Of a stretch of DNA of 64,000 nt, positions 8,684-63,764 are shown one piece after another. The number at the start of each line of letters is the position of its first letter. Position 1 is the stretch's first letter. The stretch comes from Patescibacteria group bacterium. Its GTDB lineage: Bacteria > Patescibacteriota > UBA1384 > CAJBMM01. The notes beneath the pieces are model-generated. The model saw only the letters and a program-made list of their open reading frames with translations, made no database searches and was not told the DNA's origin. The stretch covers positions 217,836 through 281,835 of the forward strand of contig JBAZWC010000002.1 of the NCBI GenBank assembly GCA_041660565.1. Direction: 5' to 3'. The position numbers and the translations under genes are program-made.

Positions 8684-8820
8684 TACTTATCATTTAACAA
8701 ATTAATGTTTTTGGACAGTTTAGTCTAATTAGTCTTTAGCGAAATGGAGCAAGACCAAAAGTATTTCGTGCTTCATCCGATAAAGTCCAATTAGTACTAC
8801 TTGTCCTAAAGAAAGGGCAC

Positions 8821-22250: not shown

Positions 22251-22751
22251 CTAGACCGTGTATGCCCGGTTGCCGCCGTGCAGCGGTTCGTGTCGCCCGA
22301 TGTTCGCGTTGACGTCGCTCAGGTAGAAGGTATGGTTTCCGCCGTTACAAGGTGCCCGCAGAGCGGGCGCGGGACGAACGCCGGATCTGGCTGTCGCGTA
22401 GATGCCGTGGCCGTCGATGGCCATGCTGTTCGTCGCGTTGATCGTCGCCCAATGGTTGTACGTGTCGCCGATGTTCACCTTGACGCCGTTGGCCGGCGGG
22501 CCGGTGTCGATCGCGTTGAGGCCGGTGACCGGGGCCGTGTCGAAGTCGCCCGTCGCCGTCGTGCAGATGTCAGTCGCTGTCCATAGATTGTACGTCGAAT
22601 CGGCCGTCGCCAAAGTCGTCAAGGTGACGACGGTCGGCGGCGAGCTGTCGACGGCGAACGCGGTGTCGTTCCGCACCGTTGCCGTAGCGGGCAACGTGAA
22701 CAGGACGAGCATCGCGAACACCGCCGTCACGAGAGCGAGCACATTCCTCAT
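22251..22751 (-). CDS. GC-rich secreted hypothetical protein (signal peptide; Thr/Asn/Gly-rich)
   Basis: 166 aa. The signal peptide is MRNVLALVTAVFAMLVLFTLPATA. A strong SD AAGGAGGG lies 8 nt upstream on the minus strand. The segment is about 65% GC. The plus-strand ORFs overlapping it are judged antisense artefacts. Confidence 0.5.
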   Translation of the reverse strand: MRNVLALVTAVFAMLVLFTLPATATVRNDTAFAVDSSPPTVVTLTTLATADSTYNLWTATDICTTATGDFDTAPVTGLNAIDTGPPANGVKVNIGDTYNHWATINATNSMAIDGHGIYATARSGVRPAPALRAPCNGGNHTFYLSDVNANIGRHEPLHGGNRAYTV

Positions 22752-34967: not shown

Positions 34968-35100
34968 TTCCTAGATTATACCACAGATTTGTTAATAATC
35001 CGTAGGGGCGGACCTATGTGTCCGCCCGCATAGTATTGTTTATTGTAGAGTTTTGTGGTATAACAACACTGCAAGCACTCTACGTTTCAGGAGACAGTCC

Positions 35101-35784
35101 ATGAAAGCGTTTGGCAAGGTCGTTTTGGCTTTTGCGCTAGTGCTCGCTCTACTCCTTCCGTCCGCCTGCTTCGCGCAGGCGCCGACTACTACTCCCAAGG
35201 TGGCTGTTCTTCCTTGGGTCTTCACCGAGAACGGGCGGGCGACTAACTCGACCAAATCCTCGGCGGTTACCACTGTCGAGAAGATGGTGGTGGACCTGCT
35301 GGCGAAGGTTGGGCTCGAGCGTGTGGACGACGGCAAGGTTACGGGGGTATGGTCGCGCGATCTGGGCAAAGAGTTGCCAACCGGCGCCGCCTTCCCTGAC
35401 GACCGAGACTTACTCGCATTGGGTCAGAAGCTGGACGTCGACTACGTCATGGTCGGCAACTGCGCCTGGCGCGTGAGGTCCGTCTGGGTGGGGTTTGGCC
35501 CCAAGACCAAGGCGGAGTGCGAGGTGTCGGTTCGCGTTATCGACGTCAAAGCTGGCGTTGTTGACTACAAGACGGTGGCCAACTCCGACTCCACCAAAAA
35601 GGAGGACCCGCTCGCCATCGCCGGGACACTGCTGATTACACCAATCTTCACCTTCGTCAGTGGCGGTCCGAAGACCCCTCATATGCAGAGGTCCGGGGGA
35701 TTCGCCACGGCTAAGGCGGTCGGTGGGTGGGCGACCAAGTTCGCGACGACCGGGCAGAAGATCAAGATCGACGACAAGAAGTAG
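35101..35784 (+). CDS. GC-rich secreted protein, paralog A (CsgG/LpoB/TolB-N-like AVLPW motif)
   Basis: The signal peptide ends ...ACFA|QAP. Conserved motifs are KVAVLPWVFTENG, DYVMVGNCAWR and KAECEVSVRVIDVKAGV. The ATG at 35101 has SD CAGGAG. An extended -10 TGgTATAAC is at 35056-35064. An identical terminator hairpin is at 35805-35839. Confidence 0.5.
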   Translation: MKAFGKVVLAFALVLALLLPSACFAQAPTTTPKVAVLPWVFTENGRATNSTKSSAVTTVEKMVVDLLAKVGLERVDDGKVTGVWSRDLGKELPTGAAFPDDRDLLALGQKLDVDYVMVGNCAWRVRSVWVGFGPKTKAECEVSVRVIDVKAGVVDYKTVANSDSTKKEDPLAIAGTLLITPIFTFVSGGPKTPHMQRSGGFATAKAVGGWATKFATTGQKIKIDDKK

Positions 35785-35804
35785 GCGTGTGGGCGCCGGC
35801 ACAA

Positions 35805-35839
35805 AACGGCTCGGATGCAGTGCATTCCGAGCCGTTTTT
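35805..35839 (+). terminator. rho-independent terminator of paralog A (identical copy at 36618-36653 after paralog B)
   Basis: AACGGCTCGGATGCAGTGCATTCCGAGCCGTT followed by TTTT. A 32-45 bp identical segment is duplicated after both paralogs. Confidence 0.65.
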
Positions 35840-35958
35840 CATTTAGTTACGTGAAATTTCTTCATTATCATATTCGATTTAGGTGTTACGTATTGAATAT
35901 TATTTATTTTTATGGTATAAAATAGTTTGCATGCACACTACGCTTCGGGAGGCTGTCC

Positions 35959-36594
35959 GTGAAATGGTTCTGCCATGTCGTGCTTGTTCTTGTTATGTGT
36001 TCGTCTGCGTGCTTTGCGAAGGCGCCAACAGGATCGCTCAAGGTGGCGGTGCTACCGTGGGTCTTCACCGAGAATGGGCAGGAGACCACCGTGGCAAAGT
36101 GCCCCGCGGTGACGGCCGTCAAGGGTATGGTGACAATACTGTTGCCCAAGGCGCGGCTCATTTGTCTGGACGAAGCCAAGGTCACGGGTGTCTGGATGCG
36201 CGATATGGGCAAGAAGCTACCTTCCGGCACCGCCTTCCCCGATGATCGTTCGCTGGTGGCTTTGGGTAAGAAGCTGGGCGTAGACTACGTGATGGTTGGC
36301 AACTGTGCCTGGCGGATGCAATCGCCTTGGGTGGAGCGGGGACCGAATTCCAAGGTAGAATGCGCCGTCAGCGTGCGGATCGTCAACGTCAAGACCGGCG
36401 TTGAGGCCTACAAGAACACCGCGAGCACCAACTCGTCCCGCAAGGAAGCTCCACTCACGATCACCCGTGACATGCAGATCTCCTCAATGGTGATCAACAG
36501 TGGCCCCAAGACTCCGCGCATGGGGCTAACGGGCGGATTTGCGGCGGCCAAGGCGCTTAACCCGTGGGTGTCCAAGTTCGCCGGCAAGAAGTAA
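35959..36594 (+). CDS. GC-rich secreted protein, paralog B (about 55-60% identical to paralog A)
   Basis: GTG start with SD GGGAGG 6 nt upstream. It has the same motifs as paralog A. Its own promoter is TTGAAT - 17 nt - TGgTATAAA (35893-35921). The terminator at 36618-36650 is near-identical to that of paralog A. Confidence 0.5.
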   Translation: MKWFCHVVLVLVMCSSACFAKAPTGSLKVAVLPWVFTENGQETTVAKCPAVTAVKGMVTILLPKARLICLDEAKVTGVWMRDMGKKLPSGTAFPDDRSLVALGKKLGVDYVMVGNCAWRMQSPWVERGPNSKVECAVSVRIVNVKTGVEAYKNTASTNSSRKEAPLTITRDMQISSMVINSGPKTPRMGLTGGFAAAKALNPWVSKFAGKK

Positions 36595-36732
36595 GGCGTC
36601 ACGTGGACGCCGACACAAAACGGCTCGGATGCAGTGCATTCCGAGCCGTTATTCATTTTATAGTCGAATTGGCTTGCCATTCCGAAGCCTTCTTGACCTT
36701 CCGTAGCTTTGGCGAAGGAGGTGGCGAAGGAT

Positions 36733-36807
36733 GGCTGGGGAGGAAGGATTCGAACCTTCGATCTTCTGCTCCAGAGGCAGACGCCGTACCGCTTGGCCAC
36801 TCCCCAA
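36733..36807 (-). tRNA. tRNA-Gln (anticodon CTG), CCA encoded
   Basis: Reverse complement: UGGGGAG-UG-GCCAAGCGGUA...UCUGC-CUCUGGA-GCAGA...GGUUCGAAUCC...CUCCCCA-G-CCA. Cloverleaf with a 7-bp acceptor stem, anticodon CUG and a T-loop GGTTCGAATCC. Confidence 0.8.
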
Positions 36808-36915
36808 TAATGCTATTATTATACTCAAAATGCGTCATATTTGCAATATTTAATATAAAATATGCCCCACGGTGTTGGTTGCCGTGGGGCTAGTGTGTGA
36901 GTGATGTACGCTGCG

Positions 36916-38484
36916 TCACTTCTTGACGAGGGCGGCCACGATTTTATCCGCGGCCACCAGCGTCTCCAACTTGGATGTGGCCTCAGATATCAGAGACTCC
37001 GTTGCCGCCAGCTCGTCGCGTTGTCGCTGTGCCAACGCGGTTCGATCGTCTATGACCCGGGTCAAGCGGTTGATTGCCTGCTGGAGCTTGTCGGGTGCGG
37101 GTGTGGCGGGCGTGTTCTGCGGGTGTGGCGTGGGTGGCACTGGTGACGCGCCGTTATGCCCCGCCTGGTTAAGACGGTCCATGGCCAGAGCGATCAAGTC
37201 GTACTCGTGGCCAGGTTTCAGCGTCAGATCGTCCTCGAGGGTAGCCGCCCCGCCTTTGAGGTTTGTCATTACCTTGATGGGCGTCGCGAATACCAGGGGT
37301 TGATTGAGACCGGGTCTAGCGAAGGCGTGCTTGCTCCGTAGTAAGCAGTTGGTTGCTGATGTTACTTCACGGCTCGACGCGCCGATCTGTTTGCCGATTC
37401 GAACGGAGCGCACTTTACCGCCGTTCTCAAAGATCTCCTTGATCAGGTGGTATGCTACTTTGATCTGGACAGGCCCGGTTAGAATCACCGGATCCCCGGT
37501 TAACTCAGGCATCGAATATCGTGCCGGTGCGGTGTCTGCCATTGCGTTGTCTCCTGGGAGTGCGCTGGGTTGGTCTTGGGGTGGTGATGGTGCAACTTCG
37601 TCGTCTGGAGTCAGCGTTTGATCGAGCGGAGTCTGGCAGGTACCGTGCGCCCCGTTTCGGTGTTGAGAGTGGGTGATGAAAGGCTGGGTCATGTCTGTGC
37701 CATCCGTTGCACACGCCATGTCTTGTAACCACCCGTTGTTAAGCAAGCGCTTTCTTGCTTGCCGTTCCAGTTGGTACACCCTCGACTCTGACCGGCGCAA
37801 GACTTCACCGATCTCTTTGTATGTCATCCCGCCGAAGTAGTAGCAGAGAGCTACCTTTCTTTCATTACTCGGTAGGGTATTTACAGCTTGCAGGATGACG
37901 CGACGTGCTTCATTATCCTCGGCTTCCGCTGCTACATCAACCTGCTTGTCTCGAACCATATCTGCGATGGTAATGGTTTCCTCGGTGTCAACCGGTTTGT
38001 CGATCCTGACAAGGGAAGTGCGTTCTTTCTCTGCGCACAAGCCAAGGTAGGATTTGATGTCTAGCTTCAACTCACGCGCAACCTCGTCATCTGTCGGAGG
38101 CCGACCCATCATTGATTCCAAACGGGCTATAACAGCTTCGATCACCTTGATGTTCTCACGTACGGTACGGGGAACCCAGTCTTCTTCGCGCAGTCCTTCC
38201 AGGATCGCTCCTCGAATTAGCGCGATGGCGTAGGTTTCGAACTTAACCATTCGGGTCAGATCAAATTGGTCCACTGCCTTGATTAGACCAATTGCGCCAT
38301 AACCCGCTATGTCGCCTATCTCCATCGTTGGTGGCAGACACGGTATCATTCTACCAGCCGATACTTTGGCTAGGTAAGAGTAGTGGGTGATCAACGCGGC
38401 TCGAGCCCGTGGATCACCCCATTGCTTGAACCGGCGCCAGTTTTCACTGATGCTTTCGGGGCGATCCTGAATTGCCGTGGCCAC
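36916..38484 (-). CDS. FliA/WhiG-type (sigma-28 family) RNA polymerase sigma factor with a Pro-rich C-terminal extension of about 270 aa
   Basis: Region 2 (GDIAGYGAIGLIKAVDQFDLTRMVKFETYAIALIRGAILEGLREEDWVPRTVR), region 3, and region 4 (LPSNERKVALCYYFGGMTYKEIGEVLRRSESRVYQLERQARKRL). The extension has PPQDQP/PPTPHP linkers and a C-terminal coiled coil. The GTG start has SD GGAGG 5 nt upstream. The segment is about 62% GC. Confidence 0.65.
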   Translation of the reverse strand: MATAIQDRPESISENWRRFKQWGDPRARAALITHYSYLAKVSAGRMIPCLPPTMEIGDIAGYGAIGLIKAVDQFDLTRMVKFETYAIALIRGAILEGLREEDWVPRTVRENIKVIEAVIARLESMMGRPPTDDEVARELKLDIKSYLGLCAEKERTSLVRIDKPVDTEETITIADMVRDKQVDVAAEAEDNEARRVILQAVNTLPSNERKVALCYYFGGMTYKEIGEVLRRSESRVYQLERQARKRLLNNGWLQDMACATDGTDMTQPFITHSQHRNGAHGTCQTPLDQTLTPDDEVAPSPPQDQPSALPGDNAMADTAPARYSMPELTGDPVILTGPVQIKVAYHLIKEIFENGGKVRSVRIGKQIGASSREVTSATNCLLRSKHAFARPGLNQPLVFATPIKVMTNLKGGAATLEDDLTLKPGHEYDLIALAMDRLNQAGHNGASPVPPTPHPQNTPATPAPDKLQQAINRLTRVIDDRTALAQRQRDELAATESLISEATSKLETLVAADKIVAALVKK

Positions 38485-38641
38485 GTTGTCCTCCGTGTTG
38501 AGTCGGGAATTGCGGCTGTTTCGGTTAGAAAGGTACGCGGTGGATTTGACATCGATACTTTATCAGATTTGGTGGTTAGCGTCAATTATTGCAGAGTTAC
38601 TGACCGCGCATTAATGACAAAATCTGTGCTACAATTGGCGT

Positions 38642-55251: not shown

Positions 55252-55812
55252 TTACTTTACGTAATAAAAACTGAATTTAATATCAGCGGATAAATTATTG
55301 GCATCACTCTCGGTTGGAATAATGGTTACAGATGTAATTGTAAGAATTCTATCTAGAGTTTCGCTTTCGGTTAATAGAAGTTTGATGTTTGGGTACGTGC
55401 CATTTACGCTCATCGATCCGGTTAGTTCTTTGTAATAGCTACTGGTTGATGCGGTGGTAGCCGCGGTATTTTTGGTAGTGCTGGTTAGCGGGGATAAGTT
55501 AATATCATTTACTTTTAGTTGGTGGCTGTTGGCCAGAGTTTCAAGGGTAAGCAAAAGAGTGTCATAATCGGGCGTTTTCGGGATAGCTAGTGTAGTAATA
55601 TTTTGGGCCTGAGTAATGTCAGTCTGGCTTTTGTTAAGTTTTATTAGATCATTTAATTTATCTTGGCTTTGGATATACTGCTGATTTTTATTTTTTAATT
55701 CCGTGATACTGTTGTTAACTCCCGATACAAAAGGTTTGATACCAAAAACTGTGCCACCACCAAGAATGGCGATGTAGATGATGGTGATTAATACGACGCG
55801 ATAATTAATCAT
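55252..55812 (-). CDS. pilO: type IV pilus assembly protein PilO-like
   Basis: N-terminal TM helix, then a coiled coil and an alpha/beta domain. Its position after pilN with a 1-nt overlap supports the call. Confidence 0.55.
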   Translation of the reverse strand: MINYRVVLITIIYIAILGGGTVFGIKPFVSGVNNSITELKNKNQQYIQSQDKLNDLIKLNKSQTDITQAQNITTLAIPKTPDYDTLLLTLETLANSHQLKVNDINLSPLTSTTKNTAATTASTSSYYKELTGSMSVNGTYPNIKLLLTESETLDRILTITSVTIIPTESDANNLSADIKFSFYYVK

Positions 55813-56411
55813 TATTTCACCTTTGGTGTTTGGTAGCCGGCGTTTAGGGTGAAAGTGAATGGGGCGGTGGTGTCAACTGATGTGTCGGCGGTAATAGTGT
55901 AGGTAATCCCAGTAAACGCCGCGTTGTTCTCTAAGGCCCGTTTGAAATCAACAATACTTGATCGTTGTTTTGCTGTTCCGCCAATGGTAATTTGAACCGG
56001 AGCGGCAGTAACAGCCGGAGTCGCACTCTTTGTTGTGGTAGCAACTGTTTTATTTACCGTAATCGTTTTTATTATTACATCGCTGCCAATCACGGCCGAA
56101 ATCTGATCTAAGATTGTGTTAGGTTTGATCTGCTTGTCAAGAATAGTTTTGATTGCTTTGAGGCCGGTGTTTGCGCTTGAGACGTTTGATTCCAGATCTT
56201 TGTACACCAAGGTTTTATTTTCGATAGTTTCTATTTGATTATTGAAACTGTTAATTTTTTCAGCAATGGTAATTCGAACCGTGGTTAAAGCTACCACAAA
56301 CCCAGCTAAAATGACCAAAATGGCGAAAAATCCGATCGAAATATAGGTCATCAAATTTACTGATAATCTTTTCTGTTTCTGAGATTGTGGTAAAAGGTTA
56401 ATGTCGCTCAT
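55812..56411 (-). CDS. pilN: type IV pilus assembly protein PilN-like
   Basis: Short cytoplasmic N-terminus (SDINLLP) that would bind PilM, then a TM helix and a periplasmic-type domain. Confidence 0.55.
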   Translation of the reverse strand: MSDINLLPQSQKQKRLSVNLMTYISIGFFAILVILAGFVVALTTVRITIAEKINSFNNQIETIENKTLVYKDLESNVSSANTGLKAIKTILDKQIKPNTILDQISAVIGSDVIIKTITVNKTVATTTKSATPAVTAAPVQITIGGTAKQRSSIVDFKRALENNAAFTGITYTITADTSVDTTAPFTFTLNAGYQTPKVK

Positions 56412-56420
56412 TTTCTCACC

Positions 56421-57446
56421 TTAATATGGCCTCATACTTAATCCAAGCGATACCGCGTACTGTAAATTTACTTCAGTGGTGCCGGTAACCAGCGGCAAAC
56501 CGGGTTCGCACTGAATATGCATTGACCCGACAACGGCCGGAATAATACCAGGGATGGTTGACCCCTGCCCAACCAGAATTGCACGCTTAATTTTGTCGGC
56601 TTGATAGTCTCTGGTTTCGTGAAAACGGTTGGCAGAAACTGCTTCTTGAACAATTGGGGCAACGGCACTGGAAACTACACTGTCAATTGAACTGCTTTTA
56701 TGATTGGATAAATAGTCCCTAACCTCGTTTTCAGGTTGGTTCAGTTTTTCACCAATGGTTTTTAGTAATTGCGCTTCGCCGATGTTTAAGGAGGTGGTTA
56801 ACCACACGTTGCCGTGGTCCGAAATAGTCATACGGGTAGATTCAGATCCGATCTCAATAATCTGAATCGCGTCGGTACTACCGGCGGGTAGTAGCGATCG
56901 GGTGATTGCGGTAGATTTTGTTTCCAAAGCCGATAGCTCAAACCCAGCCTGGTTGGTTATGTCTATCAAGCTGTCAACCATCTGTTTGGGAGCGGCAAAT
57001 ATGGCCACATCAATTTGTTGTTTGTCTGGATGCAACGCCAGTGGGGTGTAATCAATATACATTTCGTCAATTGGCATCGGAATAAACTGGCTGGTTTCAA
57101 ACGGGATTGCTTTTTGGAGCTCGTTTGGAGGCAAGTTTGGCATTTGGATTACTTTGGAAAAAATGTAAATCTCGGGTAACGCGGCCACCAGTGTTTTGGC
57201 GGTAATGCGGTGCGGGGTGGCGTTTTGCAAGGCAGATTTAATTGTTTCAATTAGTGCGTCCGGATTGGCAATAGTGCCTTTTTCAAGCGTTTTTTTAGGT
57301 AGTTCGGCGATACCTAAACTGACCAGGCGAGAATGTTGCCTTGGTCGTTTTAGTTGAGCTACTCTAACCGAGTGTTGCCCAATGTCTAAGCCGACTACTT
57401 CGGTTCGTAATCCTAAGAACGATGATAAACTCAAATACCCCTCCAT
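56421..57446 (-). CDS. pilM: type IV pilus assembly ATPase-like protein PilM (actin-like fold)
   Basis: VVGLDIGQHSVRVAQL N-terminal motif and the actin/FtsA-like architecture. Confidence 0.75.
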   Translation of the reverse strand: MEGYLSLSSFLGLRTEVVGLDIGQHSVRVAQLKRPRQHSRLVSLGIAELPKKTLEKGTIANPDALIETIKSALQNATPHRITAKTLVAALPEIYIFSKVIQMPNLPPNELQKAIPFETSQFIPMPIDEMYIDYTPLALHPDKQQIDVAIFAAPKQMVDSLIDITNQAGFELSALETKSTAITRSLLPAGSTDAIQIIEIGSESTRMTISDHGNVWLTTSLNIGEAQLLKTIGEKLNQPENEVRDYLSNHKSSSIDSVVSSAVAPIVQEAVSANRFHETRDYQADKIKRAILVGQGSTIPGIIPAVVGSMHIQCEPGLPLVTGTTEVNLQYAVSLGLSMRPY

Positions 57447-57497
57447 AAATAGTATAACAATAGAAATTACAAATCACAATTTTTAATTTTTAACCTT

Positions 57498-58877
57498 TTA
57501 TGGATTTAACTCTTCCCGCCAGGAGAGCAAGGCGTATTGGCCGGTAAGGGGGAAGCTGGGTGGGGGCGCATATAATAGATATTGGTCGTAGGTTTGAGTG
57601 GTGGTGCGGTATCCGGAAATCACGTTATTACCATTTACCCATGTCCAGTTCCAGTAGTTAAAACATCCAATAGATCCATAAACTGTGATGGCATTACGAA
57701 TATTGTATATACCCTGACCGCAATTATCGTTCCAGCAAATTGGACGATAAACTCGTCCGTTTTGCGCCAGCATAGCAGCGTTAATTTCTAATGTGTTTGG
57801 AGAAAGTGGCCCCACTTTGACATCTCGTTGCGCAGCTAAACCAAGGGCATCGGTACCATCTTTAGCGGTATAGACCAGGTTATTGGTGATGGTAATATCA
57901 CGATAGGTGGCCACTGCGGCCGGTAGGGTGGCCGCTGCAATAGTATATCGCCCATGAACTGTGCCACTAACCCAAACGTGATCCGCAGCGAATATGATGC
58001 CATTTGCCGGGGCGGGCTGGTTTACTAACGCGGTAGTGCTGAATTGGTTCAAAGTAGAGTTTGTAACGGTGGCTAAATTATAGGTGCCGTTGGCTAAAAA
58101 TTGAATGTAATACCCGAGCCCGGTCGATTTTCCAAGCGATTTTCCACCACTAGCCGCGCTGGTTTGTAACGAAAGAAAATCCGCCGTGATGTTTTGGAAG
58201 TTTATACGTGGTACCGGATAGATCCATTGATCGGTTGGTCCGCCGCTGCCCCAGACGCCGTTATGGGTGGTGTGACCATCGCCGCCAAACTGTGTAGCCG
58301 GGACATAACTAGCGTTTGCCGAGCTAACAATACCGTTGTTGGTTCCGTCGTAATGAATACCGGTGTTGGAATGAACCGGACCGTTGGTGTTTTCGCTATC
58401 ACCAAACCAAATTTCGTTATTGGTTACGACCGCATATTGACTAAAGGATGGTATACCTAAAACCGCTTTGACCGTTCTAGTGGTGGATGATCCGTTTAGC
58501 GTTCCGGTGGATTCGACAGTAGTAACTGTGCTTCCGTTTACCGGTGGGGTAATTAATAACGAATACGATCCAATGTTTTTACCGGTATTGTCTATGTACT
58601 GATGGACATAGGGGCCGTAAGGGGCACCACCCTGTGGTGCGCCATTGCCATCGGTGTAGTCGGCGTTATTGTGAGACAAATGCCACAGATAGTAACTCAC
58701 CCCGGCCTCAGAGATCCCTAGTGCGTCAATTTTATTCTGGCTGGTTTTGCTACTTTTACGTTGCATTATTGCAACTTCAACCAGGGCTACACTTAGGGTA
58801 ATAAATGCAGCACATAGGATCAAGATGATTGGGAGATAGAACGATTTGCGTTTGGATATTACTTTTTTGTTCATCAT
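57498..58877 (-). CDS. PilX-like pilus-associated protein with an N-terminal TM anchor
   Basis: The N-terminus KRKSFYLPIILILCAAFITLSVALVEVAIMQ resembles the PilX N-terminal domain. A large Thr/Asn/Gly-rich beta-rich exodomain follows. Confidence 0.35.
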   Translation of the reverse strand: MMNKKVISKRKSFYLPIILILCAAFITLSVALVEVAIMQRKSSKTSQNKIDALGISEAGVSYYLWHLSHNNADYTDGNGAPQGGAPYGPYVHQYIDNTGKNIGSYSLLITPPVNGSTVTTVESTGTLNGSSTTRTVKAVLGIPSFSQYAVVTNNEIWFGDSENTNGPVHSNTGIHYDGTNNGIVSSANASYVPATQFGGDGHTTHNGVWGSGGPTDQWIYPVPRINFQNITADFLSLQTSAASGGKSLGKSTGLGYYIQFLANGTYNLATVTNSTLNQFSTTALVNQPAPANGIIFAADHVWVSGTVHGRYTIAAATLPAAVATYRDITITNNLVYTAKDGTDALGLAAQRDVKVGPLSPNTLEINAAMLAQNGRVYRPICWNDNCGQGIYNIRNAITVYGSIGCFNYWNWTWVNGNNVISGYRTTTQTYDQYLLYAPPPSFPLTGQYALLSWREELNP

Positions 58878-58902
58878 GATTCCAAATTTGTCTGATAAGT
58901 TT

Positions 58903-59475
58903 TTATAGATTTGTTTTAAGGTTGCGTAAGTTAACTTTTGTGCTTGAGGTGGTGGTGTAGGTTGAATTGTAGGTGGAAAAGATGGTTGACGATACCGTAA
59001 CTAAGTGTACCGCAGGTAATGAAATTGGTAAATTCAGTGTCCCCATTTCTGATTCGTATTGAAACAGAGGTGTGGCTGGGTTAGTAACAAAATGGGTGTT
59101 GATGGTTCTAGTAGTCGCGGTGCCGGGGTCATAAGTATAGGTGCTACCAGATGCCACTCCAATTATAGTGGAAAGAGTGATGTTTGCGCCGGTTTTGGTG
59201 ATGGTGACTTGTGTTGGAGTGGCGTCGGCAGGGGCAAAATAGGATAGCACGGTGATCTGTGAAGCATCTGCTGACACAACTTGATAAGTTCCACGAAGCG
59301 CATTGGCAATTCGTGTGGTTAATGTGTCTGCCTCAGTTTTGGTTAGCGAAAGATACTGTCCGCGATAGTAGAGCGTGTAGGTATTACGAACGAAAGCAAT
59401 TAAAATAGAGCCAATTATGGTCAAAATGGCTACCGTAACTAACAACTCGACTAAACTAAAAGATTTTGTTTTCAT
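58903..59475 (-). CDS. type IV pilin-like protein
   Basis: Class III leader MKTKS|FSLVELLVTVAILTIIGSIL, with Glu at +5 and an N-terminal hydrophobic helix. Confidence 0.55.
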   Translation of the reverse strand: MKTKSFSLVELLVTVAILTIIGSILIAFVRNTYTLYYRGQYLSLTKTEADTLTTRIANALRGTYQVVSADASQITVLSYFAPADATPTQVTITKTGANITLSTIIGVASGSTYTYDPGTATTRTINTHFVTNPATPLFQYESEMGTLNLPISLPAVHLVTVSSTIFSTYNSTYTTTSSTKVNLRNLKTNL

Positions 59476-60821
59476 TCGATAACTATTGCCTCTGTTTGAC
59501 GCGCCGTGTGGCCTTGGGCATCACGATATATCAGATCGTAACTGCCAAGTGTTAGCGCCGAAAAATCGACTGTGCCACTGACAAGCGTGTTGTTTTGACC
59601 CACTGTCAGGCCGGTGTTGAATGGAATTTCCGCATCTGAACCGCGCTGAAGTGAGAACTCGGGTAAAGTTAAGTTGGCGCCAGATATTTCGATACTTACC
59701 CCAGCCGCAGCCGTGAATTGGTTTGGGTTAATATTTGAAATGCGCACGTCAGTTGGATCAATGGTGAAGTCACAGTTAACGGTAATGGCGCTATTAGGTG
59801 AAACGATAATGGGCAAGGTTGGGGAACAAGTTTTAATAAAAAATCCGATGGGAGGAGTAATGTTATAGCTATCGAACTCCAAATTACTAATCTGGACAAT
59901 CGGGTTGATTACAAATAATACCTGATTTTTAACCACATCTGGATTCTGTCCGATTAGTTTTTGCCCCACTAGCGCCGCGTCTCCACCGAAAACTACCACA
60001 CCGGTAATGTTAATGGTTAATGATGAGGTCAGGTCTATTGATAGTGTTACCTCAGTTGGTTGTTGCAGTAGGATTGTAGCATCTGGATTGGTTGGGCTTG
60101 GATTGGCAACTGAAATAGGGGTGGTTGAATCAGAGCTGTAGTTAACTTTTGAAGCAACAATGTGATAATTACCGGCTGGGGTTAGATTTGGGATGAAAAC
60201 ACCTCCGGCGGCATCGGTGGTGGTAGTGACATTAACGGGTGGGTTAACGGATGCGTTGGTTAAAACGATTGTTGCATCTGGAACCGGGCTGCCATTGGCA
60301 TCCAAAACTTTTAATTTTAATACGCCGGTATTAGAGGCGGTCTCAGCGGCTCTGGAGGCAATATCGGTTGAAAGCGTGGCTAGAACGGATGAATCGGTGT
60401 CTAGCACGGTAATGGTAACCCGTTTGTAATCAGCCGGATTAAGATCTCCGCTCCCAACCAAACTGTCATAAGCATCGTCAACATATCTAATGTCGGTGTG
60501 CACAACAAACTGAAATTTGTCTCTAGTAACCGATTCTTGATCTAAAATGTTGCCCTGTGGCACAATCGGGCCGTTTTGAGTGGCCAAGCTATCATATGAA
60601 AGGTTGCGAATATGCTCTAGCTTCTCATTTACTAGCTGCCCAGCGGCGGCAACTCTAGACGATTGATTAACGGTCTTGATACTACTCGCCATCGCCATTA
60701 TTACCACCGTAGAGATAAGCGAAAGAATCGCCATATCAATCACAACCTCAATAAGGGTGACAGCTTTTCTGGTTGATGATAGTTTAATGTGAAGCCTCAT
60801 ATTCATCCGATTCCAAGTCAT
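59472..60821 (-). CDS. minor pilin-like protein with carboxypeptidase-regulatory-like Ig domains
   Basis: Prepilin-like N-terminal helix KAVTLIEVVIDMAILSLISTVVIM. The exodomain is beta-sandwich-like (GSPVPDATIVLTNASV...GNYHIVASKVNYSSD). The start is ambiguous between the TTG at 60836 and the ATG at 60821. Confidence 0.45.
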   Translation of the reverse strand: MTWNRMNMRLHIKLSSTRKAVTLIEVVIDMAILSLISTVVIMAMASSIKTVNQSSRVAAAGQLVNEKLEHIRNLSYDSLATQNGPIVPQGNILDQESVTRDKFQFVVHTDIRYVDDAYDSLVGSGDLNPADYKRVTITVLDTDSSVLATLSTDIASRAAETASNTGVLKLKVLDANGSPVPDATIVLTNASVNPPVNVTTTTDAAGGVFIPNLTPAGNYHIVASKVNYSSDSTTPISVANPSPTNPDATILLQQPTEVTLSIDLTSSLTINITGVVVFGGDAALVGQKLIGQNPDVVKNQVLFVINPIVQISNLEFDSYNITPPIGFFIKTCSPTLPIIVSPNSAITVNCDFTIDPTDVRISNINPNQFTAAAGVSIEISGANLTLPEFSLQRGSDAEIPFNTGLTVGQNNTLVSGTVDFSALTLGSYDLIYRDAQGHTARQTEAIVIE

Positions 60822-60868
60822 TTCCCAATTGGTCAAATTGGTCCAATTGGATAAATTGGATTTTGTAT

Positions 60869-62089
60869 TTATGTGATTGATGATGTGAGTGAATAAATTG
60901 GCAGTAATATGGCAATCACAATCGAGCCAATAACCCCACCCATTATTAACATCAGCGCCGGTTCGAGTAATGTAGTTAGGTTTCGGGTTAAGTTATCCAC
61001 CTCTTTTTCCATAAAATTAGCTAAATTATTAAAGATAACATCGGTATTTCCGCTTTTTTCACCTACCGCAGTCAGCTGGACCATCATTCTAGGCATGTGT
61101 GGTTGTTTTTTTAATGCTGCCGAAATATCTAACCCGTTTTCAACGTCTTTGCCAGCTTTTTCTATCTCAACCCTGAATATATCATTGCCAACAACGTCTT
61201 TTGAGGTTGAAAATATCTCTTGCATTGGCAACCCGGCGCCAAGCAAAGTGGCAAAAATGCGGGAAAATCTGGCTAAACTAACCTTCCGAATAAGGGTGCC
61301 AAAAATTGGAATATTAATCTTAATTAGGTCAATGCGATGTTTGCCCTTGGCGGTGCGATAGTAGAAACGATAGCCGAAAAATACCCCAACAAGGGCGATA
61401 ATAATAATGTATCCCTGGCGGCGGATAACGTCTGCTAATCCAATTACCATACGCGTAACCAAGGGTAGCTTGGCATTATTTTCAATAAATACCGCCTGTA
61501 TTTGAGGCACAATGAACAACATAATAAGAGTGACAATAACCACCATCGCGACTAAAACAAAAATCGGGTATGCCATTGCACCTTTTATTTTGGCTTTGAT
61601 ATCGTTATCTTTTTCCATCTGAATTGTCAGCCGGTCTAGCACCTCATCTACTTTTCCGCTTTTTTCTCCGGCTTTTAGAATGCTCACGTAAACCGTATCA
61701 AAGATGTCCGGATGTTTGGCAAACGCCTGAGATAACGCCAAGCCACCTTCAACATCTGCGGTGATGGTTTTAATGATCTGGGCAAACTTTTTGTTATTTG
61801 TTTCTTCTTGCAGAGATCCGAGCGCTTGGCTAATTGGTAGCCCGGCCTTGGTCATAATGGAGAGCTGCTGAGTAAAAACAAATTTGTCTTTATCACCGAT
61901 TCTGTTAAACAATGACCCCCCAGCCTTTTTAGCCGACTTAGATGAGGATAAATTGCCCTCAGAAATATCTAAAATTATTAAATTTTTATCTCGCAATTTT
62001 TTAATCGCGTCACTTTTCGAATCCGCAGAAATTACGCCATTGGATTTCTGGCCCTTTGAATCACGGGTGATGTATCTAAAATCAGCCAT
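60869..62089 (-). CDS. pilC: type IV pilus platform protein PilC (GspF family)
   Basis: Two GspF repeats and three TM helices. It lies 1 nt downstream of pilB. Confidence 0.85.
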   Translation of the reverse strand: MADFRYITRDSKGQKSNGVISADSKSDAIKKLRDKNLIILDISEGNLSSSKSAKKAGGSLFNRIGDKDKFVFTQQLSIMTKAGLPISQALGSLQEETNNKKFAQIIKTITADVEGGLALSQAFAKHPDIFDTVYVSILKAGEKSGKVDEVLDRLTIQMEKDNDIKAKIKGAMAYPIFVLVAMVVIVTLIMLFIVPQIQAVFIENNAKLPLVTRMVIGLADVIRRQGYIIIIALVGVFFGYRFYYRTAKGKHRIDLIKINIPIFGTLIRKVSLARFSRIFATLLGAGLPMQEIFSTSKDVVGNDIFRVEIEKAGKDVENGLDISAALKKQPHMPRMMVQLTAVGEKSGNTDVIFNNLANFMEKEVDNLTRNLTTLLEPALMLIMGGVIGSIVIAILLPIYSLTSSIT

Positions 62090-62090
62090 C

Positions 62091-63764
62091 TTACTCCTTT
62101 GTCACTCGCCATACTTCTTCTAATGTGGTTAACCCATCAAGCGCTTTTAAGATTCCGTCTTGAATCATGGTAATCATGCCATCTGCAACGGCTTGTTTTT
62201 GGATGACGCTACCCGAAACGCGTTCCAATGCCAATTTTTTCACCGTTTCGTTGATTTCCAGCACTTCAAAGATACCGATTCTGCCTTTATAGCCAGTGTT
62301 TTGACACAGATCGCATCCCTTGCCGCGATAGAAAGCGATCTCTTTTTTAGCCACTTCTTTTCGGGGGATTTCTGGCATCTCGCTAATAATTTTATTCACT
62401 AATTCTTCTTCGGATTTATCTGCCGCTACTTTTTGTTTGCAGTCTTGGCATACTTGGCGCGCCAGACGTTGGCCGACCACAGTGTTGATAGAAGAGGTGA
62501 TTAGGAACGGCTCGATGGCCATATCGATTAAACGTGGGATTGCACCGGCAGCATCGTTAGTGTGCAAGGTTGAAAGGACAATGTGCCCCGTTAGCGATGC
62601 TTGGATGCCCATTTCGGCAGTTTCTTTATCACGAATTTCTCCCACCATAATAATGTTTGGGTCTTGACGCACAATCGCTCGCAAACCGTTGGCAAAGGTG
62701 TAGCCAATGTCGGCATTAATCTGGCTTTGGTTTACGCCAGCCATGCGGTACTCCACCGGATCTTCAATAGTCAAAACGTTCACTCCGGGATTCATAATTT
62801 GAGTTAGCAGCGCGTAAAGAGTAGTGGTTTTCCCAGATCCGGTTGGCCCGGTCACCAGCGTCATACCGTGGCTTTTGGATACCGCACTGTCTAGGGTTTT
62901 ACGTGATTCGCCCCTTAAACCAAGCTGATCAAGCGTCAAAATTCCGACGCTTTTATCTAAAATACGTAACACGATTTTTTCGCCCGTAACCACCGGAATA
63001 GTGGACATACGAAAATCGATATCTCGGCGGTCGATAATCAGCTGAATACGGCCATCTTGTGGCAATCTTTGCTCGTCAATTTTTAGGTTAGCTAAAATCT
63101 TTAGTCGTGAAGCTACCGCTGCTTGAATTTCTTTGGGCAGCGTGACCTTTTTATGCAAAATGCCATCAAGCCTAAACCGAACAATCACTTCTTTTTCATC
63201 CGGTTCAATATGAATGTCCGAAGCTTTTTCTCGCACCGCTTTTTTTAATAATGAGTAAACAATGCGGGCTGTGGGAGCGTTTTCGTTCTCGGGTTCTTCA
63301 TCTACCTGCTTAATTTCTTGCTTTTTCTCTACTCCTAAATCGGCGTCAGAAATAGCGTCTTCCAGATCGGCCTGAAAACCGGAATATTGATCTAAAATAT
63401 GACCAACATCATCGGTTGTACACAGCTTTGGCTTAACCGCGTAGCCGGTCTTGCGTTTAATTAGCTCTATTGTCTCCACATCCTGCGGATCTACCATCGC
63501 CACGTTTAGAGCGTTATTTTCGAGCGATATTGGCACCGCTTGGAACTTGCGAGCGATGTGTTCGGGAATTAAGTTAAGGATTTCTTTGGGGACGTTAACT
63601 TGACTAAGGTCTGCGTATTCAATATTAACTGTGCCGGCGCTTAAAAATTTCTCCGCTTCAGACGCGGACGTGTCTTTAACCAGGTCAGCTTGTGATAAAA
63701 CTGGCGGAATATTTGCGTTTATTGGCACCGGTGTGCCGTTATTTTGATCGGTCTGATCTGCCAT
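62091..63764 (-). CDS. pilB: type IV pilus assembly ATPase PilB (GspE family)
   Basis: Walker A GPTGSGKTT, Asp/His boxes and a tetracysteine motif (CQDC...CDLC). Confidence 0.9.
   Translation of the reverse strand: MADQTDQNNGTPVPINANIPPVLSQADLVKDTSASEAEKFLSAGTVNIEYADLSQVNVPKEILNLIPEHIARKFQAVPISLENNALNVAMVDPQDVETIELIKRKTGYAVKPKLCTTDDVGHILDQYSGFQADLEDAISDADLGVEKKQEIKQVDEEPENENAPTARIVYSLLKKAVREKASDIHIEPDEKEVIVRFRLDGILHKKVTLPKEIQAAVASRLKILANLKIDEQRLPQDGRIQLIIDRRDIDFRMSTIPVVTGEKIVLRILDKSVGILTLDQLGLRGESRKTLDSAVSKSHGMTLVTGPTGSGKTTTLYALLTQIMNPGVNVLTIEDPVEYRMAGVNQSQINADIGYTFANGLRAIVRQDPNIIMVGEIRDKETAEMGIQASLTGHIVLSTLHTNDAAGAIPRLIDMAIEPFLITSSINTVVGQRLARQVCQDCKQKVAADKSEEELVNKIISEMPEIPRKEVAKKEIAFYRGKGCDLCQNTGYKGRIGIFEVLEINETVKKLALERVSGSVIQKQAVADGMITMIQDGILKALDGLTTLEEVWRVTKE

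Follow-up and report, generated by a model that had tools for sequence, protein, structure and literature searches.

The segment described here (positions 35056-38484) lies in a 64,000-nucleotide stretch, hereafter the window, of contig JBAZWC010000002.1 from assembly GCA_041660565.1. NCBI labels the organism "Patescibacteria group bacterium", and the narrower host label of Saccharibacteria, adopted in a first-pass annotation of this DNA, was not confirmed. Between a divergent glycosyltransferase gene and ydjM, the segment carries a tandem cassette of two genes for paralogous secreted proteins (paralogs A and B) and, on the opposite strand, a tRNA-Gln gene and the gene for a FliA/WhiG-type sigma factor that continues into a long C-terminal tail (Table 1). 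The secreted proteins have a known fold and make up a small new family; the sigma factor belongs to a known type but bears a unique tail, so far from one genome. The segment is probably a mosaic of horizontally acquired genes beside the tRNA-Gln gene, with Armatimonadota-like donors and a tail fused to the sigma factor.

The segment had been described as a GC-rich island of about 62% GC; the island is real by sliding window, and the percentage was overstated. GC content is 56.0% in 35056-38484 and 57.2% in 35101-37722, compared with 45.0% across the window. In windows of 200 nucleotides, it reaches 58-65% between about 35100 and 37700, except in two AT-rich spacers (38.5% at 35800-35999, and 48-50% at 36700-36999, around the tRNA promoter). 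The excess is confined to the coding sequence: the island consists of three GC-rich coding stretches (59-60% GC, with GC content at third codon positions, GC3, of 0.66-0.78), separated by spacers as AT-rich as the host genome. The excess is most marked at third codon positions. Relative to the 42 remaining window genes (GC3 0.446 ± 0.043), paralog A (60.5% GC, GC3 0.776), paralog B (59.1%, 0.755) and the sigma factor tail, residues 255-522 (59.0%, 0.658), gave z-scores of 7.6, 7.2 and 4.9, respectively, which bears out the view of the segment as compositionally foreign. The sigma domain proper (residues 1-254) has 52.2% GC and a GC3 of 0.555.

Table 1. Features of the segment, with positions counted from the first nucleotide of the window
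Feature	Position	Strand	Remarks
Paralog A, extended -10 promoter element TGGTATAA	35056-35063	+	read from sequence
Paralog A, Shine-Dalgarno (SD) site GGAGA	35090-35094	+	read from sequence
Paralog A, predicted secreted protein	35101-35784	+	227 aa
Paralog A, intrinsic terminator hairpin	35803-35838	+	-24.1 kcal/mol, z -4.8; within 56-nt repeat 35789-35844
Paralog B, extended -10 promoter element TGGTATAA	35913-35920	+	
Paralog B, SD site GGGAGG	35947-35952	+	
Paralog B, predicted secreted protein	35959-36594	+	211 aa; GTG start
Paralog B, intrinsic terminator hairpin	36619-36650	+	-22.7 kcal/mol, z -5.2; within repeat 36603-36658
tRNA-Gln (anticodon CTG)	36732-36806	-	ARAGORN; Rfam 67 bits
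tRNA-Gln promoter, sigma-70-type, TTGCAA-17-TATAAT	36846-36818	-	
Terminator hairpin downstream of sigma gene	36864-36890	-	-19.5 kcal/mol, z -4.7
Sigma factor gene	36916-38484	-	522 aa; GTG start preceded by GGAGGA; NCBI model of same length
Sigma residues 439-522	36919-37170	-	Pro-rich linker (439-464), then helix of ~57 residues
Sigma residues 321-438, predicted alpha/beta domain	37171-37524	-	three helices, strands, helix; low confidence
Sigma residues 256-320, low-complexity linker	37525-37719	-	rich in Pro, Thr, Asp, Gln, Ala
Internal SD (GGAGA) and ATG at M315	37540-37542 (ATG)	-	within linker
Sigma residues 1-255, FliA/WhiG-type sigma2-sigma3-sigma4 domain	37720-38484	-	intact
Promoter-like site of sigma gene, TTGACG-17-(TG)TAAAGT	38585-38557	-	sigma-70-like

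The cassette is a duplicated promoter-gene-terminator unit, as had been proposed, with the same extended -10 element, an SD site, homologous 5' regions and a terminator block in both copies; each paralog would therewith form its own transcription unit under a housekeeping-type promoter. The proteins are 56% identical (BLASTP E 3e-83), within the 55-60% claimed earlier, and the conserved motifs quoted in that annotation were found in the paralogs. Identity between the copies is 73% over the 71 nucleotides preceding the start codons, merely 64-66% over the coding sequences, and 95% over the 56-nucleotide blocks 3' of the stop codons, where a 37-nucleotide run is fully identical, loop included. 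The substitution rates (nonsynonymous, dN, 0.31; synonymous, dS, 1.16-1.23; dN/dS about 0.27) indicate that the duplication is not recent and that purifying selection maintains both paralogs. With dS above 1, the near-identity of the terminator blocks calls for a separate explanation, possibly gene conversion, re-copying or a sequence-specific role. A further GC-rich hairpin, GGGCGGAC-N6-GTCCGCCC followed by a T-rich tract, occupies 35005-35028 (+) between the divergent glycosyltransferase gene and paralog A; there is no plus-strand gene upstream that would require a terminator, and its fold z-score is just -2.3.

Sequence models capture the secreted proteins poorly. Both paralogs fall below every Pfam and NCBIfam cut-off, the best score being that of paralog B on LpoB (PF13036; 13.2 bits, cut-off 22.3), and paralog A matches none of the curated family models in these two collections. 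An AlphaFold2 model built from six family members, with a predicted local distance difference test (pLDDT) score of 75.5 and a predicted template modeling score of 0.70, matches one fold group, all of them diderm envelope proteins (Foldseek E 1e-6 to 1e-4). The alpha/beta fold common to LpoB, PelC, CsgG and the TolB N-terminal domain (TolB-N) is thus present in the family, and the earlier guess of a CsgG/LpoB/TolB-N-like fold is borne out by both the model and its matches. Paralog A combines this domain with a type-I signal peptide (...ACFA/QAP, the slash marking cleavage). Across the family, the last signal-peptide residue is Ala, with Gln or Lys next, and a lipobox is missing from most members; lipoprotein anchoring finds no support, as most members have no Cys at position +1 and the Ala-Gln site, judged by eye, is of the signal-peptidase-I type.

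The family shares with TolB-N, PelC, LpoB, CsgG, GNA1162 and CT253 an envelope alpha/beta fold of diderm bacteria, in which it serves as an envelope-associated interaction or ring-forming module. However, sequence identity to these proteins is just 10-18%, most members carry a signal-peptidase-I site in place of a lipobox, and the motifs C-x-W-x-x-x-S-x-W-V and G-P-K-T-P-x-M are invariant in this family and particular to it. In addition, the paralogs occur in an organism thought to be without an outer membrane. They would be exported by the Sec pathway and cleaved by signal peptidase I, leaving about 190 residues that could take a binding or scaffold role at the cell surface. Two of the most highly conserved stretches, S-V-W-V-G-x-G-P-K-T-K-A and the hydrophobic A-G-A-L-L-x-T-P-x-F-T-x-V-S-G-G-P-K-T-P-H-M, are modeled at low confidence and may become ordered only within a complex. 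The functional surface is probably formed by these two invariant "GPKT" loops.

The distribution of the family points to Armatimonadota. A word-indexed search of 5.8 billion proteins returned only five sequences, namely paralog A and four relatives, and 18 loci were recovered when one genome per GTDB species was scanned with a sequence pattern. According to their lineage names, 12 of the 18 belong to Armatimonadota (Chthonomonadales, Fimbriimonadales, Fimbriimonadaceae, Armatimonadota/-etes) and two to Saccharimonadales/Saccharibacteria, with the rest unlabelled. The Armatimonadota loci have 54-66% GC, and the GC3 of the family gene is near the median of its neighbors. In the window (0.76-0.78, background 0.45) and at L002 (0.66 vs 0.54), L003 (0.69 vs 0.55), L019 (0.75 vs 0.62) and L035 (0.65 vs 0.46), the GC3 of the family gene is instead at or near the top of the locus; at L020, a locus from a Saccharibacteria metagenome-assembled genome (MAG), the gene has 53.6% GC against a background of 47.6%. 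Because the gene matches its neighbors in Armatimonadota and stands out elsewhere, composition suggests the direction of transfer, and the donors would have resembled Armatimonadota, which are GC-rich and have two membranes, rather than Actinobacteria. In a neighbor-joining tree, the window copies are sisters (100% bootstrap) and the Saccharimonadales copy of L019 joins a Chthonomonadales sequence (89%).

The surroundings of the family gene vary. No conserved gene neighbors were found in the Armatimonadota loci, and no family match was found among viral contigs, plasmids, PHROGs or PADLOC. In Saccharimonadales-type loci, the family gene adjoins or neighbors a gene for a DUF7379 / palmitoyl-thioesterase-like alpha/beta hydrolase of about 570-650 residues (L003, 10888-12591; L004, 982-2685; L019, 889-2730; L020, 16928-18721); no homolog of this hydrolase was found in the window. 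The L020 copy (CAYHNZ010000001.1, 9872-10560) has a frameshift in the conserved RSPW region and retains its local GC bump; it is either a decaying gene or an assembly error.

The sigma factor leads to the same phylum. Two gene models exist, and the 522-residue version is favored over the JGI model (469 residues, start at M54, losing part of region 2) because the GTG at 38484 follows GGAGGA and because of the alignment of homologs. Pfam detects regions 2 (33.7 bits), 4 (43 bits) and 3 (24.9 bits, cut-off 25.3) within residues 43-247, and region 1.1 is absent. The top NCBIfam models are WhiG (214.8 bits) and FliA_WhiG (182.3), both over residues 8-247, followed by FliA (162.3). Among the 120 best database matches of the sigma domain, identity is 48-54%, all but one are 252-283 residues long (the other has 318), and every lineage-named entry is assigned to Armatimonadota, Chthonomonadaceae or Chthonomonas. 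The Armatimonadota relatives give an identical ranking of NCBIfam models with higher scores (240-262 bits for FliA_WhiG, 276-303 for WhiG), which suggests that the protein is a diverged member of the Armatimonadota group. It belongs to the group-3 sigma factors of the FliA/WhiG clade and is expected to direct RNA polymerase to promoters of the TAAA-N15-GCCGATAA type elsewhere in the genome.

Compared with the ~256-residue FliA/WhiG proteins of Chthonomonas and its relatives, the sigma domain aligns end to end and shares regions 2, 3 and 4, the lack of region 1.1 and every invariant block; the differences are its 522-residue length, well outside the typical family range of about 240-270, its Patescibacteria genome and the missing flagellar, FlgM or RsiG context. 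No flagellar genes were found within about 10 kb of the segment, and the genes called about 10 kb to either side contain neither FlgM nor another anti-sigma Pfam family. In the two closest sigma-homolog loci examined (L023, 8781-10567; L024, 8910-11061), fliA also lies outside a flagellar cluster and is followed by a small gene without a Pfam match, encoding a transmembrane helix, a coiled coil and a C-terminal helix-turn-helix-like motif, and then by a SurA-like rotamase gene. This small gene was considered as a source of the tail and rejected, as the two show no similarity. An identification of the sigma factor as MzaA was likewise dismissed, since the match (PADLOC 28 bits; NCBIfam 55.6, cut-off 800) involves the generic sigma region only. 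Searches of PHROGs, viral contigs and plasmids gave no match that would link the sigma factor or the cassette to a phage or plasmid.

The earlier description of regions 2-4 followed by an extension of about 270 residues with a Pro-rich linker holds: homologs end 5-9 residues past residue 255, which sets the extension at about 265-270 residues. The architecture has no counterpart in the collections searched. A phmmer pass with residues 321-522 over 1.84 billion representative proteins returned the query alone, as did a search with residues 255-522 of the 5.8-billion-protein collection, and nothing significant besides the query was found among PDB sequences, viral contigs, plasmids, PADLOC or PHROGs. 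At E <= 10, Pfam returned no FlgM, the sole match being a sub-threshold one (16.4 bits) between the terminal helix and the N-terminal coiled coil of H-NS; the RsiG c-di-GMP motif, E-x3-S-x2-R-x3-Q-x3-D, is also absent from the tail. Structure prediction gave a divided answer. A single-sequence AlphaFold2 model is poor overall (pLDDT 57; about 40-64 in the middle domain), and the top Foldseek matches of the middle region are the winged-helix proteins BusR, MarR and ArsR, none significant (E >= 0.16), so that residues 321-438 may form a winged helix. The terminal helix is modeled with confidence (pLDDT 77-87) and has hydrophobic residues at 12 of 16 a/d heptad positions; it is a probable dimerising coiled coil.

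The simplest reading of the tail, taken from its sequence, is a GC-rich gene of some 208 codons, once independent, that became fused to the sigma gene via a former spacer. A former gene is suggested because an SD site and an ATG stand inside the frame at M315, preceded by ccaGGAGAcaacgcaATG at an SD-to-start spacing of the same kind as in the paralogs; moreover, GC3 climbs toward the C-terminus, where it is 0.71-0.76, compared with 0.53 in the linker. The fusion would run through a linker of about 65 residues, and the tail, with its possible winged helix and dimerising coiled coil, could tether, dimerise or modulate the sigma factor. Sigma factors of the ECF41 and ECF42 type offer a comparison, since their polypeptide, too, is extended at the C-terminus by a further domain, which could modulate activity in cis. 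ECF41 and ECF42 are group-4 sigma factors, and their SnoaL-like or tetratricopeptide-repeat extensions are conserved across many genomes; the present protein differs as a group-3 sigma factor with an orphan tail that may comprise a winged helix and a coiled coil.

Position, foreign composition and Armatimonadota-like affinity are what the parts of the segment have in common. Their compositional classes differ (GC3 of 0.77, 0.66 and 0.56), which suggests separate arrivals at one permissive site instead of a single module. Among the family loci, a FliA/WhiG-type sigma gene adjoins the family gene only in this window; at L014, L015 and L018, a distantly similar sigma gene lies 2-3 kb away, and the one that was scanned is RpoD-type with region 1.2. 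As in tRNA-adjacent genomic islands, genes of foreign composition stand immediately 3' of a tRNA gene, here in at least two compositional classes; unlike in such islands, neither integrase nor mobility genes were found, and the 3' end of the tRNA gene has no direct repeat. A 16-nucleotide inverted repeat with 88% complementarity (34975-34990 / 38620-38635) encloses the entire segment; it was examined as an element end and discarded, as about two such pairs are expected by chance in this region (an estimate).

The regulatory reach of the sigma factor may lie outside the cassette. The window has a type IV pilus operon (pilB-pilC-pilin-pilMNO, 55252-63764) and, as noted above, no flagellar genes near the segment, in agreement with the first-pass annotation. 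In non-flagellate Rubrobacter, WhiG drives type IV pilus genes (PMC8325347); this precedent makes the pilus operon a reasonable regulon candidate, though the window contains no matching promoter. Scans of the whole window for sigma-28 promoters (TAAA-N14-17-(G)CCGATA(A), exact and with up to two mismatches) gave intragenic or poorly placed matches. The only well-placed intergenic match (<= 2 mismatches), CAAAAGTATTTCGTGCTTCATCCGATAA at 8756-8783 (+), lies 38 nucleotides upstream of pnp, which encodes polynucleotide phosphorylase, and is probably due to chance.

Several results weigh against a mosaic of horizontally acquired genes. Bootstrap values at the deep nodes of the family tree are low (16-57%), so that composition carries most of the argument on how many transfers took place and in which direction. 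Both paralogs remain near GC3 0.77 despite a dS above 1, and the Saccharimonadales-type copies are all GC-elevated yet just 36-49% identical to paralog A; GC elevation that persists through such divergence is easier to reconcile with repeated recent transfers, or with selection for GC-rich codons, than with a single old transfer. The sigma domain deviates mildly in composition (GC3 z 2.5); it could have been acquired earlier or even be resident, and its score on the FliA_WhiG model TIGR02479 is just below the curated cut-off of 189.6 bits. The tail is a singleton in one MAG with a poorly modeled middle domain. The tRNA gene has no att-like partial copies, as no repeat of the tRNA region exceeds 12 nucleotides in the window. 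Between the glycosyltransferase gene and ydjM there is no integrase and no open reading frame (ORF) of at least 60 codons besides the paralogs, the sigma gene and overlapping ORFs, and paralogs A and B and the sigma factor match no integrase family. No empty insertion site was recovered, the metagenome relatives of the flanking glycosyltransferase being at most 35% identical and offering no usable synteny. Finally, the regions upstream of the cassette, the pilus operon and the sigma gene yielded no promoter of the sigma-28 type.

Other origins of the segment were compared with this reading. The first-pass annotation had favored a module derived from the actinobacterial host of a Saccharibacterium, in line with the GC-rich, Pro-rich composition and with WhiG as the best NCBIfam model for the sigma domain. 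However, the WhiG equivalog score lies far under its cut-off of 343 bits, and the FliA proteins of Armatimonadota also match the WhiG model best. The secreted-protein family is mainly found in Armatimonadota, with no actinobacterial locus among the 18, and the lineage-named close sigma relatives are all Armatimonadota as well; an actinobacterial origin is therefore very unlikely. A different proposal reverses the direction: the secreted-protein family would be old in Saccharimonadales, its GC-richness kept by selection, for example on codon usage or mRNA structure, with Armatimonadota as recipients. All six non-Armatimonadota copies are GC-elevated despite strong divergence, and the persistence of high GC3 in the window paralogs would also be explained. 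Nevertheless, the gene has the GC content of its genome in Armatimonadota only, several deep clades of the family lie within that phylum, the structural relatives found are all diderm envelope proteins, and one Saccharibacteria copy is frameshifted, which leaves this direction quite improbable. The abrupt GC shift could, in principle, also arise from an assembly chimera or binning contamination, with Armatimonadota DNA stitched into a Patescibacteria contig. This has next to no probability: the coding sequences alone are GC-rich, with spacers and promoters as AT-rich as the host, and the proteins are just 36-54% identical to any Armatimonadota sequence. In addition, in the Logan assembly of SRR18595301, paralog A is continuous with the native rpmA-rplS-gltX-glycosyltransferase genes and the sigma gene with ydjM, galE and clpB, so that both outer junctions are spanned; the contigs of this assembly break at the repeated terminator and the tRNA gene, as expected for repeats.

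The remaining alternatives concern function. The segment might be a self-contained module in which the tail acts as a cis anti-sigma or sensor domain, as in ECF41/42-type factors, and the cassette is the regulon of the sigma factor. The genes adjoin and share a foreign composition, and the tail ends in a confident coiled-coil helix, the element through which the anti-sigma factor RsiG binds WhiG (PMC8325347). Against this, the cassette promoters are of the sigma-70, extended -10 type with no match to the sigma-28 consensus nearby; the tail has neither the RsiG motif nor FlgM or any other Pfam family; and the sigma gene and the cassette are not neighbors at any other locus. We regard such a module as improbable. 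The tail may instead be a functionless accident, in which loss of a stop codon extended the sigma frame into a foreign gene under decay, or two genes were merged through an error in the MAG consensus. Its singleton status, the former gene start at M315, the point at which homologs end and a GC1 (0.73) above GC3 (0.53) in codons 271-315, unlike the two C-terminal windows, would all agree with an accident. On the other hand, a frame of about 270 open codons has a chance of about 1e-4 in random DNA of 59% GC, as estimated from base composition, so that the fused reading frame is real in this assembly. From residue 316 on, each of the four windows has a GC2 lower than its GC3, and in the last two GC3 is the highest of the codon positions, a coding-like pattern. 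The identical 522-residue product appears in both assemblies and in the NCBI call; exact-match look-ups of neighboring genes gave matches from sample SRR18595301 only, and as both assemblies probably come from the same reads, they count as one observation of the fusion frame. An accidental tail is possible, though on balance unlikely.

Both an alternative sigma factor and an exported-protein family trace to Armatimonadota, a diderm phylum, and genes acquired from other phyla are among the few sequence clues to the partners of these organisms and to the construction of their surface. Our literature search found nothing relevant on horizontal gene transfer between Saccharibacteria and Armatimonadota or on FliA in Saccharibacteria. 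At five Saccharimonadales-type loci besides the window, the exported-protein gene stands out as a GC peak one gene wide, a pattern that points to repeated uptake or to strong selection. If functional, a group-3 sigma factor extended by so large a C-terminal module would represent a new architecture; at present, one MAG is its only source. A bolder proposal, in which the winged-helix and coiled-coil module makes this a working new kind of sigma-28-type factor, dimeric, DNA-tethered or self-regulating, co-opted together with Armatimonadota-derived envelope-fold proteins for surface interaction with partner cells, is decidedly doubtful at present. Under this proposal, the secreted proteins might oligomerise in the manner of CsgG, through the conserved hydrophobic "GPKT" hairpin (residues about 169-188), and some environmental Saccharimonadales would live physically close to Armatimonadota and not to Actinobacteria. 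Regarding the first-pass annotation, the island is real, and its actinobacterial origin and sigma-regulon logic are without support.

A second, unrelated GC-rich insert lies elsewhere in the window, at 22251-22751 (-). It consists of a 166-residue ORF with a signal peptide (NCBI WC773_03780) that has no Pfam or PHROG match and is the sole member of its own 90%-identity cluster, and it reaches 64.5% GC with a GC3 of 0.856 (z 9.5).

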